From an uncultured Muribaculaceae bacterium (lineage in GTDB: Bacteria; Bacillota_I; Bacilli_A; RF39; UBA660), in assembly GCA_964533935.1 (NCBI GenBank), contig CAZHOG010000002.1, positions 23,529 through 87,528 of the forward strand: a stretch of 64,000 nucleotides of DNA, given 5' to 3'. Below, one piece after another: positions 56,601-59,600 of the stretch. The position numbers are program-made. Position 1 is the first letter of the stretch; each line of letters begins with the position of its first letter.

Positions 56601-59600
56601 TTTACTTGGAAAATACGTTAATAAAAAAATCGGAAAACTATCTACAGTATTTGGCATTATTATTTTAATAATTATGGCAATATATTTGATTATTTAATAA
56701 TATTATATTAAAATATATGAAGTACTAAAGGAACGTGAGACCTATGGAAAAAATTATTATTAATGGTGGACATAAATTAACTGGTGAAATAAATATTAGC
56801 GGTGCAAAAAACAGTGCAGTAGCATTAATTCCAGCATCTATATTATCTGATGAATATTCCACAATTTATAATGCTCCAAATATATCTGATAAAGAAGCAT
56901 TGCTAGACATATTAAATATATTAAATTGTAAAATATTAGATAGTGGGGATGTATTAAATATAAATAGTTCACTATTAAATAATGTTTTAATAGACGAAGA
57001 ACATTCTTCAAAATTAAGAGCATCATATTATTTTATGGGAGCGTTATTAGGCAAATGCAAACATGTAGAAATTTGTTTACCAGGAGGATGTAATATTGGT
57101 GCAAGACCAATAGATTTTCATTTAAAGGGATTTAAACAATTAGGTGCTAATCTCACTATTGAAGGGAATAAATATATTTTAGATGCCGAGAGATTGACTG
57201 GTGCAGATATTTATCTTGATTTTCCATCAGTGGGTGCAACTATAAATATAATGCTTGCTGCTGTAAAAGCTGAAGGAAAGACAACAATTATTAATGCGGC
57301 TAAAGAACCAGAAATAGTAAATGTAGCAACTTTTTTAAGTAATATGGGTGCAAAAATTAGTGGAACTGGAACTAGTGAAATAAAAATAATTGGTGTAAAA
57401 GCATTACATAAAGCAATAATAGAAGTTATTCCAGACAGAATAGAAGCATCAACTTATATAATAGCAGGAGCATTAATTGGAGATAATTTAAAGATTAATG
57501 GTGTTATTAAAGAACATATGGAATCACTATTATCAAAATTTACTGAAATGGGAATAGATTACAAATTAAAAGATTTTTCATTAACTATTAGTGAATCCCA
57601 AAATATTAAACCAATTAATATTAAATCTCAAGTATTTCCAGGATTTCCAACTGATATTGGACAACCAATGAGTGTGTTGTTAACAAAATGTGAAGGTGTT
57701 TCATTATTTGAAGAAACTATATATGATAATAGAATGGGACACGTAAGTTATTTAAATAGAATGGGAGCTAATATTACACTAAAAGATGGAAAAGAACTAA
57801 TAAGTGGACCAACAAAACTAGTCGGTAAAGATGTTATAGCAACAGATTTAAGAGCAGGCGCTGCTATGGTATTAGCAGGATTGGCTGCATCAGGAACAAC
57901 AAAAATATCAGAGATAAGTCATATATTACGTGGATATGAAAATATTATAGAAAAATTACAGCATGTTGGAGCGGATATTAAAATAGAAAAAAACTAATGT
58001 TTACGCTAATTTGACAAATTTGCTAAAATATGTTATTATTTATTTATGTGTGGTGCATTATTCTAGTCACATATATTGTTCTGAAGGTAGGGCTAAAAAT
58101 CTACTAATTGCGTGAAAGCACTTCGTATGTTTGCTTCATTCGCCCAGATTGGGGTGGCATATGATTTAAAGTTTAAGGAAAAATTATAACGGCATATAAT
58201 TAAATTCCTTTTACTAGCAAGATGGATAAAAAGCGCATGTCGTGAGTGATTTTTATGGAATAAGTTTTTACGAATTTAATGTGAATTACTTTGAAACTAA
58301 AATTGCAAAAGCGAATAAAGTCAATCAATGTGTGTTTGGGAAAACCTCTAGAATGTATTACTATAGGTTTTGAGGTATGGACTAAGTGGTAATCGAGTAG
58401 CTTTATCGGTGACGACAAGCTGTTATCCTTTAATGAGAAATCGCCGGTGGGTAACCTAAGGTAGGAAATAGAGAAATTCAACTCGACCTAAGCCATAAAA
58501 TTAATCTATGGTATACCATTACATTTTTTTTATGCAAAAAAGGTGGAAATATGAAAAAAAATAATTGGATTATAAAAGTATTTTTATTAACATTTTTATT
58601 AGCTTTAGTATTTGGTTCTTTAACTACTTTATTATCTGATATAAATAATTTATTATTAGCATTGATATTGTTAATAGTAATCTTTATTGGAATAATGTTT
58701 GATATGATTGGTGTTTCTGTTTTAACTAGTAATGAGGTTACATTTCATGCAAAGGCTTCCAAAAAAATTAAAGGCGCTAAAGAAGCAATTTTATTAATAA
58801 AAAATTCTGCTAAAGTAAGTAGTGTATGTAATGATGTAATTGGAGATATATGTGGAATATTAAGTGGTGCGCTTGGAACAACACTTTCAATTTCTATATC
58901 AACAAATTGGCATACTAATTTAGTTTTAACATCTATATTAATAGCAGCAATAATTTCAACATTAACTGTTGGTGGCAAGGCTATAGGAAAAGATATAGCA
59001 GTAAAAAAATGTGATAATATTGTTTTCTTTGTTGGAAAACTTAAAAAAAATTTAAAAATAAAATAATTTTATTGATAAAATTGATTAATATGATATAATA
59101 CATTAGACAAAGGAATATCTATGCCAAGATACTTGGTATGGCGAAAGGAGAATATTAATGAAAAAGAACATTCATCCAGAAATGAAAGAAGTTACTGTTA
59201 AATGTGCTTGTGGAGCTACATTTACTGCTAAATCTACAAAAGATAATATTGAAGTTGAAGTTTGTAGTGAATGTCATCCATTCTATACAGGAGCTCAAGG
59301 TAGAGTTAAAAAAACTGGTAATATCGAAAAATTCAACAGAAGATATGGAATTAATAAAGACGAAAAAGCTGCTTAATTGTAGCTTTTTTTATGTTAAAAT
59401 CTTTTAAAAAATAATTGGTATGGTATAATAAACATAGATGAGGTGCTTATGAAAAAAATTAAATATTTAATTAAAAGAATTTTTCACATGAATTTTAAAG
59501 GCTTTTTCACAACAATTCATGATGTTCATATTAAAACTAAAAAAAATAGTATTTTAATATTTTTTGATGTTATATACTGTGGGCTAAAATATCAAGCAGG

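Follow-up and report, generated by a model that had tools for sequence, protein, structure and literature searches.

The window analyzed here is a 64,000-nt stretch of contig CAZHOG010000002.1 from an uncultured bacterium, and the question raised by one of its loci is what is encoded in the long spacer downstream of murA and whether it belongs with the small membrane protein gene that follows. An earlier interpretation, made without database searches and called the sequence-only reading below, had proposed a large non-coding RNA resembling OLE RNA, followed by a membrane protein resembling its partner OapA. The spacer RNA is a member of the OLE class, and window positions 58011-59066 are, with little room for doubt, an ole-oapA module consisting of a promoter, a reduced OLE RNA and the gene of the membrane partner, oapA. 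The OLE class and a reduced gut-bacterial form of it with the partner gene oapA have already been published, and the element is ordinary for its clade.

Identity of the RNA

The Rfam model RF01071 (OLE) matches window positions 58034-58535 on the plus strand with 214.2 bits (gathering score 50, E 6.7e-59). The match is 502 nt long, runs end to end over model positions 1-616 and is the single OLE match in the whole 64 kb in an Rfam scan at gathering thresholds. No competing Rfam family was found in the spacer in a permissive scan of 57900-59500 (E<=1), whose other matches were the L31 leader before rpmE and one match to a small RNA at chance level. The OLE-like RNA proposed after murA is thereby confirmed over the full model, at more than the gathering score, and no different known RNA takes its place. 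The hallmark blocks of OLE RNA are present in the window (GUGGUGCAnUAUnCUAGUCA, CUAAAAAUC, GCCCA, AAYGGCAU, UGCAAAAG, GGAAAAC, CUAGA, GGACUAAGUGGUAAUC, GACCUAAGCC and ACCA; further forms are GUGGUGCAUUAUUCUAGUCA, AACGGCAU, GGGAAAACC followed by CUAGA, GGACUAAGUGGUAAUCGAG and a terminal ACCA) and are invariant or nearly so across the 31 short relatives described below.

The spacer extends from the end of murA (56735-57997; NCBIfam equivalog match, 553 bits) to the start of the next gene at 58551. It is real and distinct, as the sequence-only reading had it, but measures 553 nt and not about 530. Its G+C content is 32.5%, against 24.2% in the whole window and also in coding sequence, and ranks top among the 28 window spacers of at least 60 nt, the rest of which have 9-28.5%; the second and third richest contain transfer-messenger RNA (tmRNA) and tRNA. 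The enrichment noticed earlier is therefore genuine, although it counts relative to intergenic DNA, since some 200-nt coding windows also reach 33-35% G+C. All of the strings quoted at the time were recovered at their positions in the spacer, namely gcccagattggggtggc at 58142-58158, cgccggtgggtaacctaaggtagg at 58442-58465 and the repeated acctaag at 58454-58460 and 58486-58492. The statement that the spacer has no credible open reading frame (ORF) needs qualification: ORFs of 33-43 amino acids (aa) occur on the plus strand and one of 93 aa, with a TTG start, on the minus strand (58200-58481). None of them is conserved in 30 relatives, in which the longest ORF of the homologous RNA lies now on one strand, now on the other, and measures 36 to 100 aa; this argues against any conserved coding in the spacer.

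Relatives and covariation

Related loci were collected by a profile search with a 44-member OapA alignment. The best 80 of at least 566 loci, from named assemblies, were used; the set excludes Halalkalibacterium halodurans and the window's own genome. Loci that have to be told apart are given numbers with the prefix L. In each of the 83 loci an OLE-like sequence lies upstream of oapA, on the same strand (iterative nhmmer search seeded by the window RNA; a few copies are cut by contig ends); 13 loci were sampled for a check with Rfam, and all 13 were confirmed as OLE. Complete copies can be divided by length into two groups, the short class (458-519 nt, 33 loci) and the long class (538-744 nt, 41 loci). 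Members of the short class were found in metagenome-assembled genomes (MAGs) labeled Bacilli, Tenericutes, Mycoplasmatota, Erysipelotrichaceae and Candidatus Coprovivens, those of the long class in Clostridia, Oscillospiraceae, Thermosediminibacteraceae and others.

In most of the 83 loci oapA stands immediately after OLE. The claim that OLE is invariably followed by oapA holds in so far as oapA is downstream in every one of them, and is slightly too strong because a gene intervenes in L011 (3349-5326), where a secreted-looking ORF of 409 aa (3488-4717) lies between the two. Gaps of 0.4-1.8 kb between OLE and oapA were seen in L048, L031, L053, L052, L082 and L023.

An alignment of 31 short OLEs has a mean column identity of 72% and long invariant blocks. 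RNAalifold predicts 114 pairs in 20 helices, 68 of them with double (compensatory) changes. Paired cells amount to 98.1%, compared with 86.1% in shuffled alignments and 38-43% after the partners had been shifted by 1-3 columns; for covariation the score is 0.429, compared with 0.192 for shuffles (0 of 500 reach 0.429) and 0.07-0.09 for shifted partners. Covariation was counted on a structure predicted from the same alignment, and the margins are very large. A fold of about 20 helices is maintained by compensatory changes across the clade.

Promoter and expression signals

A predicted strong promoter of the sigma-70 type is conserved just 5' of the OLE RNA. The candidate site of the window has 11 of 12 consensus matches plus the TG and is one of two such sites in 56600-59500, and a TTGACA-like/TGnTATAAT-like pair stands 8-10 nt before GUGGUGCA in 31 of 31 short-OLE loci. 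Transcription would probably start near 58046-58048, 2-4 nt before GUGGUGCA; with the start placed there, the first approximately 12 nt of the Rfam span would be promoter, overlapping the -10 box, and the transcribed OLE probably extends from about 58046 to about 58520-58531. A sequence scan found no canonical terminator between OLE and oapA, so co-transcription of the two is the simplest reading. The U8 tract behind the closing helix may act as a partial termination signal or 3'-end signal; U-tracts occupy this position in several relatives, not in all.

The start of oapA at 58551 lies 31 nt after the closing helix of OLE, on the same strand. This short distance, the apparent single promoter for both and the lack of a canonical terminator would also suit an RNA whose action is mainly in cis, that of a long structured 5' leader controlling oapA and not of a stable trans-acting RNA-protein component. 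Such a role is improbable. OLE of H. halodurans is an abundant stable RNA bound by OapA, the intervening gene of L011 and the gaps in other loci are unsuited to a leader, some 20 conserved helices go far beyond what known leaders need, and a U8 tract follows the closing helix.

The gene downstream of oapA, rpmE (59158-59376), has a promoter-like site of its own (TTGATA-16-TATAAT with TG, 59072-59099) and is preceded by a near-threshold match to the L31-Firmicutes leader RF03156 (59119-59150, 30.4 bits against a gathering score of 33.3), which together mark it as a separate unit. The L31 leader scores above threshold in the relative L005 (6567-6597).

Architecture and losses of the short form

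The features of the module are listed in Table 1. Helix names follow our own mapping, for which P5 was assigned from the nucleotide numbering in the text of the kink-turn paper (P5 at about 85-144, P6 to about 190; PMC9723947) and P9 from the GGCC apical loop named L9.3 in the text of the cryo-electron microscopy paper (PMC12286853).

Table 1. Features of the ole-oapA module (window coordinates)
Feature	Position	Strand	Description and basis
Promoter-like site	58011..58039	+	TTGACA 58011-58016, 17-nt spacer, TGtTATTAT, -10 hexamer 58034-58039
OLE RNA gene, reduced, variant 2 type	58034..58535	+	RF01071, conserved blocks, covariation in 31 relatives
Closing long-range helix 1 (P1-like)	GUGGU 58050-58054 with ACCAU 58515-58519	+	5 pairs, 100% paired
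Long-range helix 2 (P2-like, CUAG palindrome)	UAUUCUAG 58059-58066 with CUAGAAUG 58348-58355	+	8 pairs, 99.6% paired
Long-range helix 3 (P3-like)	58076-58080 with 58320-58324	+	5/5 pairs with double changes in the clade
Hairpin GGUAGG/UCUACU, invariant A-rich loop GCUAAAAAUC	58086..58105	+	Helix 4, two covarying pairs
Long hairpin, GCCCA loop (P5/P5.1, own mapping)	58123..58164	+	Helix 5: 17 pairs, 11 with double changes
Hairpin, conserved AAYGGCAU loop (P6, own mapping)	58170..58215	+	Helices 6-7: 14 pairs, 10 with double changes
Unpaired linker, 24 nt	58216..58239	+	Fold 0 kcal/mol; length 21-38 nt in 31 short OLEs
P9 arm, shortened; base helices conserved	58240..58314	+	Helices 8-9: 14 pairs, 9 with double changes
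Small conserved hairpin GGGAAAACC, then CUAGA block	58338..58346	+	Helix 10: both pairs covary GC->AU
3' domain (P12-P15 region), closed by ACUAUAGG/UCUAUGGU	58360..58512	+	Helices 11-20
P13 hairpin, GUGA (GNRA) tetraloop and bulge	58400..58420	+	((((..(((....))).)))), -4.4 kcal/mol
P14/P14.1-like arm, internal loop UUUAAUGAGAAAUC, apical GUAA (GNRA)	58421..58470	+	Helices 17-20: 12/13 pairs with double changes
U8 tract	58524..58531	+	5 nt past the closing helix
Shine-Dalgarno GGUGG of oapA	58542..58546	+	4 nt before ATG
oapA, 171-aa four-helix membrane protein, CNNM-like fold	58551..59066	+	Alignment, AlphaFold2, fold comparison

The window OLE is about 100 nt shorter than full-length copies (502 nt on a 616-position model; about 600 nt had been expected). 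In place of model positions 198-277 (80 nt) there are 14 nt of the linker, the tip of the P9 arm (model 286-384) has shrunk from 34 to 13 nt, and the small hairpin at model 424-435 is absent. In the aligned full-length OLE of L043 (558 bits), positions 198-277 form two hairpins; we infer that these are P7 and P8, so that the window RNA would be without both. The same deletions are present in 31 of 31 short relatives.

In these losses the window OLE corresponds to the published variant 2 of the RF39 clade; the short length thus narrows the subtype and leaves membership of the OLE class untouched. According to the text of Fernando and Breaker (2024, mSphere; PMC11332333), variant 2 lacks P7 and P8 wholly and is common in the uncultured gut order RF39, whose reduced genomes are reported to be without OapB and OapC; variant 1, from TANB77, keeps short P7-P9 stems and has often lost the OapB site at the tip of P13. 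With variant 2 the window OLE shares the absence of P7 and P8, the retention of the nucleotides that are highly conserved in full-length OLE, the retention of oapA and, probably, a host among the uncultured low-GC gut Bacilli with reduced genomes; no OapB or OapC is seen in the available (64-kb) sequence. Nothing essential is different. The loss of model 424-435, the conserved dedicated promoter and the P13 GNRA loop, kept in 27 of the 31 short OLEs, are additional here; they are unmentioned in the text of PMC11332333 and may well be in its figures. Variant 1 is likewise shortened and found in uncultured gut Bacillota, whereas the window RNA is without P7 and P8 altogether and keeps the canonical GUGA loop of P13.

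Compared with the full-length OLE of H. halodurans and Clostridium acetobutylicum, the same blocks, the same helices outside P7 and P8 and an oapA gene directly downstream are found, including the A-rich L4 loop, the GCCCA loop, the AAYGGCAU loop, P13's GUGA tetraloop and the GACCUAAGCC block. The differences are the shortened P9 tip, which is without a GGCC, GAUC or AGCU loop, the predicted promoter of its own (OLE of H. halodurans is transcribed within a long polycistronic RNA), and the neighbors murA and rpmE in place of ispA and dxs.

The three long-range helices are not annotated by the Rfam model. In helix 1 one pair changes from UA to AU in 6 sequences; the central pair of helix 2 covaries (GC 16, UA 10, AU 2, CG 1); helix 3 has one U-U mismatch in the window. 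The GCUAAAAAUC loop of the following hairpin is probably the L4 loop of the A-A dimer bridge B1 seen by cryo-electron microscopy (PMC12286853). The window RNA keeps the A-rich L4 loop and the loops L5 and L6, and loop L7 of bridge B2 is missing because P7 and P8 are absent. With L7 gone and the P9 tip short, the dimer interface described in the text of that paper must be weaker or different here. J4a/5, the kink-turn region near P5 (OapC/bS21), is 6 nt shorter, and its consensus GAUGAAG reads GUGAAAG; the GUGGAGA block of J6/7 is unrecognizable within the window linker.

In the P9 arm, the apical 41 nt (58256-58296) may form a weak hairpin with the loop GAAUUUAAU, which holds AAUU and UUAA palindromes and contains AAUUUAAU; the minimum-energy fold of the window arm conflicts with the clade consensus. 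About half of the short clade is without the apical hairpin of P9, and the short OLEs L017, L040 and L055 have the GAUC palindrome, a published kissing-loop variant, in the P9 apical loop; among the palindromes of these loops only this GAUC is convincing. AAUU/UUAA was considered as a kissing-loop palindrome of the window and rejected, such 4-mers being common by chance in A/U-rich loops and the tip having a z-score of -0.13; any kissing-loop role for it is speculative.

The 3' domain carries the invariant blocks GGACUAAGUGGUAAUCGAG, GAGAAAU, CUCGACC and AAGCC. Its P13 GNRA loop (window 58404-58416) has been lost from L015 and L022, and L032 and L016 have a changed form of it. In H. halodurans, P13 is the primary binding site of OapB, and its tetraloop docks on P12.2 in the crystal structure (PMC7936274). 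By analogy, docking of the P13 loop on P12.2 could account for its conservation independently of OapB.

The loss of about 100 nt and a score of 214 bits, against 442-558 bits in full-length copies, could also be taken as marks of a decaying, non-functional remnant in a reduced genome, the more so as RF39 genomes are reported without OapB and OapC and as the copy of the relative L025 is smaller still, at 381 nt. This explanation is very unlikely, and the covariation largely refutes it: in the short clade, 98.1% of the cells are paired, 68 pairs are compensatory and long blocks are invariant. In addition, all 31 loci have the promoter, oapA is intact and has kept every invariant residue of its family, and the same deletions recur in 31 relatives. 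Because of the covariation and the identical deletions, the reduced OLE is seen as an old and stable form under purifying selection.

The locus L025 belongs to an uncultured Bacilli MAG with murA...OLE-oapA synteny. Its OLE (5616-5996, 134 bits) is without most of P9 and without model 74-277 (P5-P8 by our mapping, a stretch that takes in the OapC/bS21 region), its oapA is intact, and oapA is separated from rpmE by about 5 kb of additional genes. This OLE is more reduced than variant 2 as published.

The membrane protein

The 171-aa protein encoded downstream is OapA, with an invariant DxxxD motif and a transmembrane fold resembling CNNM/CorB. Its homologues number 2551 at 90% clustering and 1037 representatives at 50%. 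It is 46% identical (E 4e-48) to the protein of L043 and 44% identical to that of L037, both encoded 3' of near-consensus full-length OLEs. As a Dxs-like gene, recognized by eye from its translation, follows oapA in L043, this locus represents the canonical OLE-oapA-dxs context. The family to which the sequence-only reading had assigned the protein is thus upheld, by its position 3' of OLE in all loci and by its identity to the OapA of a canonical locus.

In the alignment of the window protein with 43 diverse representatives, D51, D95, G98, D99, G102, G106, K143 and K147 are invariant. The codon of D51 is at 58701-58703, and the DVIGD sequence (D95-D99, nt 58833-58847) lies within helix 86-120; its earlier identification with the DxxxD motif of OapA is supported by its invariance in all 44 sequences. 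In the AlphaFold2 model (predicted local distance difference test 94.1), residues 6-30, 33-59, 86-120 and 124-152 form long helices, and an amphipathic helix stands at the C-terminus. Four long helices had been predicted correctly, but not all are hydrophobic: only three pass a Kyte-Doolittle threshold of 1.6, and the helix with DVIGD is polar. Lysines are concentrated in three places, the N-terminus, the 60-85 loop and the C-tail, a distribution that suggests an N-in/C-in topology. The protein contains no proline.

The CNNM family PF01595 is matched below threshold (20.2 bits, cut-off 28.4), no further Pfam domain was found, and no NCBIfam model matches the protein. A PDB sequence search gave nothing at E<=1, and fold comparison was used instead. 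The sub-threshold score fits the published observation that OapA forms the next-best cluster of CNNM matches after MpfA. Within the OapA family the window protein differs only in size (171 aa, the family having about 170-210 aa) and is without the basic N-terminal extension of many members.

An ordinary Mg2+ transporter of the CNNM/CorB type that merely adjoins the RNA is hardly to be expected here. The CNNM resemblance comes with only 171 aa, without the pair of CBS domains and without CorC_HlyC, and with four transmembrane helices, not the three of CorB. CNNM domains carry a conserved proline and no DxxxD; in the window protein the proline is missing and DxxxD is present, in contrast to MpfA, CorB and CorC, and homologues of it follow OLE in 83 of 83 loci. 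The protein is not a member of the CNNM Mg2+ transporter family. That the spacer is itself protein-coding or a degraded gene is refuted for practical purposes, since the 93-aa minus-strand ORF that could be cited for it has a TTG start, the longest ORFs of 30 homologues change strand and size, the length variation is not in multiples of three, and the Rfam match explains the conservation.

Proposed function

In work on H. halodurans and C. acetobutylicum, OLE was found to dimerize and to be bound by dimers of OapA, which keep it at the membrane; cells need the complex to tolerate ethanol, cold, poor carbon sources and excess Mg2+. OapA is related to the Mg2+ transporter MpfA and resembles its transmembrane part; ole and the genes of MpfA anticorrelate. 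Following these precedents, OLE and oapA of the window would be co-transcribed from the promoter-like site at 58011-58039, and the RNA would fold and persist as a stable RNA. OapA would insert into the membrane with both termini inside, with its lysine-rich 60-85 loop and C-tail contacting the RNA, and would hold OLE at the membrane in a particle that aids stress tolerance, including tolerance of excess Mg2+. D51, D95 and D99 may form an intramembrane acidic site for a divalent cation, and the RNA may fill the regulatory role that the CBS and CorC domains have in MpfA. The complex would be a stripped-down one that manages with fewer RNA arms and, probably, in the absence of OapB and OapC.

Several points weigh against identifying the module and reading it in this way. 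It is known here from its sequence alone, and the homology of its protein to OapA of H. halodurans is indirect, by way of the canonical OLE-oapA-dxs locus. The score of the window OLE is less than half that of full-length OLEs, which is attributed to the deletions. Isolated arms fold no better than shuffled sequence (z -0.13 to -1.8; single-sequence folding gives -1.49 for the P9 arm, -0.13 for the P9 tip and +0.17 for the P14 arm), so support for the structure comes from covariation and not from energy. The helix names P1-P15 were mapped by us from text descriptions in papers. No OapB-like (KOW), OapC-like (L7Ae) or MpfA-type protein is encoded in the 64 kb, a negative that agrees with the absence reported for RF39 but cannot prove it and says little on the rest of the genome.

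It is possible, although rather doubtful, that the ole-oapA of the RF39 type represents a minimal OLE particle of natural origin, which works with no protein partner but OapA. The features that suggest it are the loss of P7 and P8 and with them of part of bridge B2, the loss of the P9.3 kissing loop in about half of the clade, and the absence of P5-P8 from L025. If it were so, the P13 tetraloop would be kept for RNA-RNA docking and not for OapB, the essential core of OLE would consist of the 5'/3' domain together with the OapA-contacting P2-P4 region, and dimerization of the kind seen by cryo-electron microscopy would be dispensable or achieved otherwise.

OLE is among the largest and best-conserved bacterial non-coding RNAs, and its natural variants can be regarded as deletion experiments done by evolution. 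The window locus and its 30 relatives show which arms can go missing (P7, P8, the P9 tip and the small hairpin), the rest being under strong selection, and the P13 tetraloop persists in a lineage reported without its partner OapB. The picture published in 2024 is unchanged, and the main result is that the first interpretation of the raw sequence was correct; the residual value of the locus lies in the RF39 clade as a natural minimal OLE system, should it be one.

Gene neighborhood and host

The local gene order is uvrB, a class A penicillin-binding protein gene, argS, prfA, prmC, spoIIR, an MntP/YtaF-like gene, murA, OLE, oapA and rpmE, followed by genes for an ATP-grasp protein, rpiB, DUF1146, spoIID and an M23 peptidase. 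Around OLE this order recurs only in the subclade of L001, L005, L017, L024, L025, L032, L034 and L039, and OLE has different neighbors in the other approximately 70 loci. The sequence-only reading had called this a variant locus, rightly so as murA and rpmE replace ispA and dxs; that the RNA is reduced as well had escaped it. A variant locus in this sense is ordinary, because ole neighborhoods differ between clades. In the text of PMC12265935, ole is described as clustering with genes for the cell wall, translation, sporulation and metal ions across 730 species.

The closest loci are from MAGs of Bacilli, Tenericutes or Mycoplasmatota. The closest syntenic relative is L024, from Candidatus Coprovivens, a genus placed by GTDB in RF39, family CAG-1000 (PMC8035907). 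RF39 is predicted to have kept a peptidoglycan cell wall and sporulation (PMC10868615), which fits the presence of murA, the penicillin-binding protein gene, spoIIR and spoIID in the window. The host is probably a low-GC gut bacterium, likely spore-forming, of the order RF39 or a close relative.

Other features of the window

At approximately 14000-16000 the GC skew changes sign and the gene orientation flips, between rnpA (14346-14678, minus strand) and the tmRNA gene (14954-15308, plus strand), and the replication origin is therefore probably located there. The genes dnaA (4601-5956), dnaN and recF lie about 9 kb from this switch; on the minus strand they form a co-linear series with rnpA, yidC, jag, mnmE, mnmG, rsmG and parB instead of diverging from rnpA. 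Counted from the switch, the OLE locus lies some 43 kb away on the leading strand.

Accessory genes form a block (15400-31100) directly after the tmRNA gene. It encodes two large serine recombinases (15891-17687 and 29586-31106), a D5_N primase-like protein (25875-28223, minus strand), a DUF6414 protein with an AAA ATPase (22579-24505), an ABC ATPase, a GT2 glycosyltransferase, an APH-like kinase and helix-turn-helix regulators. The block looks like one or two elements integrated at ssrA; a search for an att-like direct repeat of the tmRNA 3' end at the borders of the putative island found none.

Several ORFs of 380-530 aa in 39235-46446 are without a Pfam match. Other genes of the window (2789-3241, 33382-34473 and 36360-38738) encode a competence regulator of the ComK family, a GGDEF diguanylate cyclase with a DUF6020 membrane protein beside it, and a phosphoketolase (XFP). 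Among the related loci, L042, from a Mycoplasmatota MAG, contains the PGK RNA motif RF03040 (85.8 bits, 6528-6619, minus strand) about 4.5 kb downstream of oapA.

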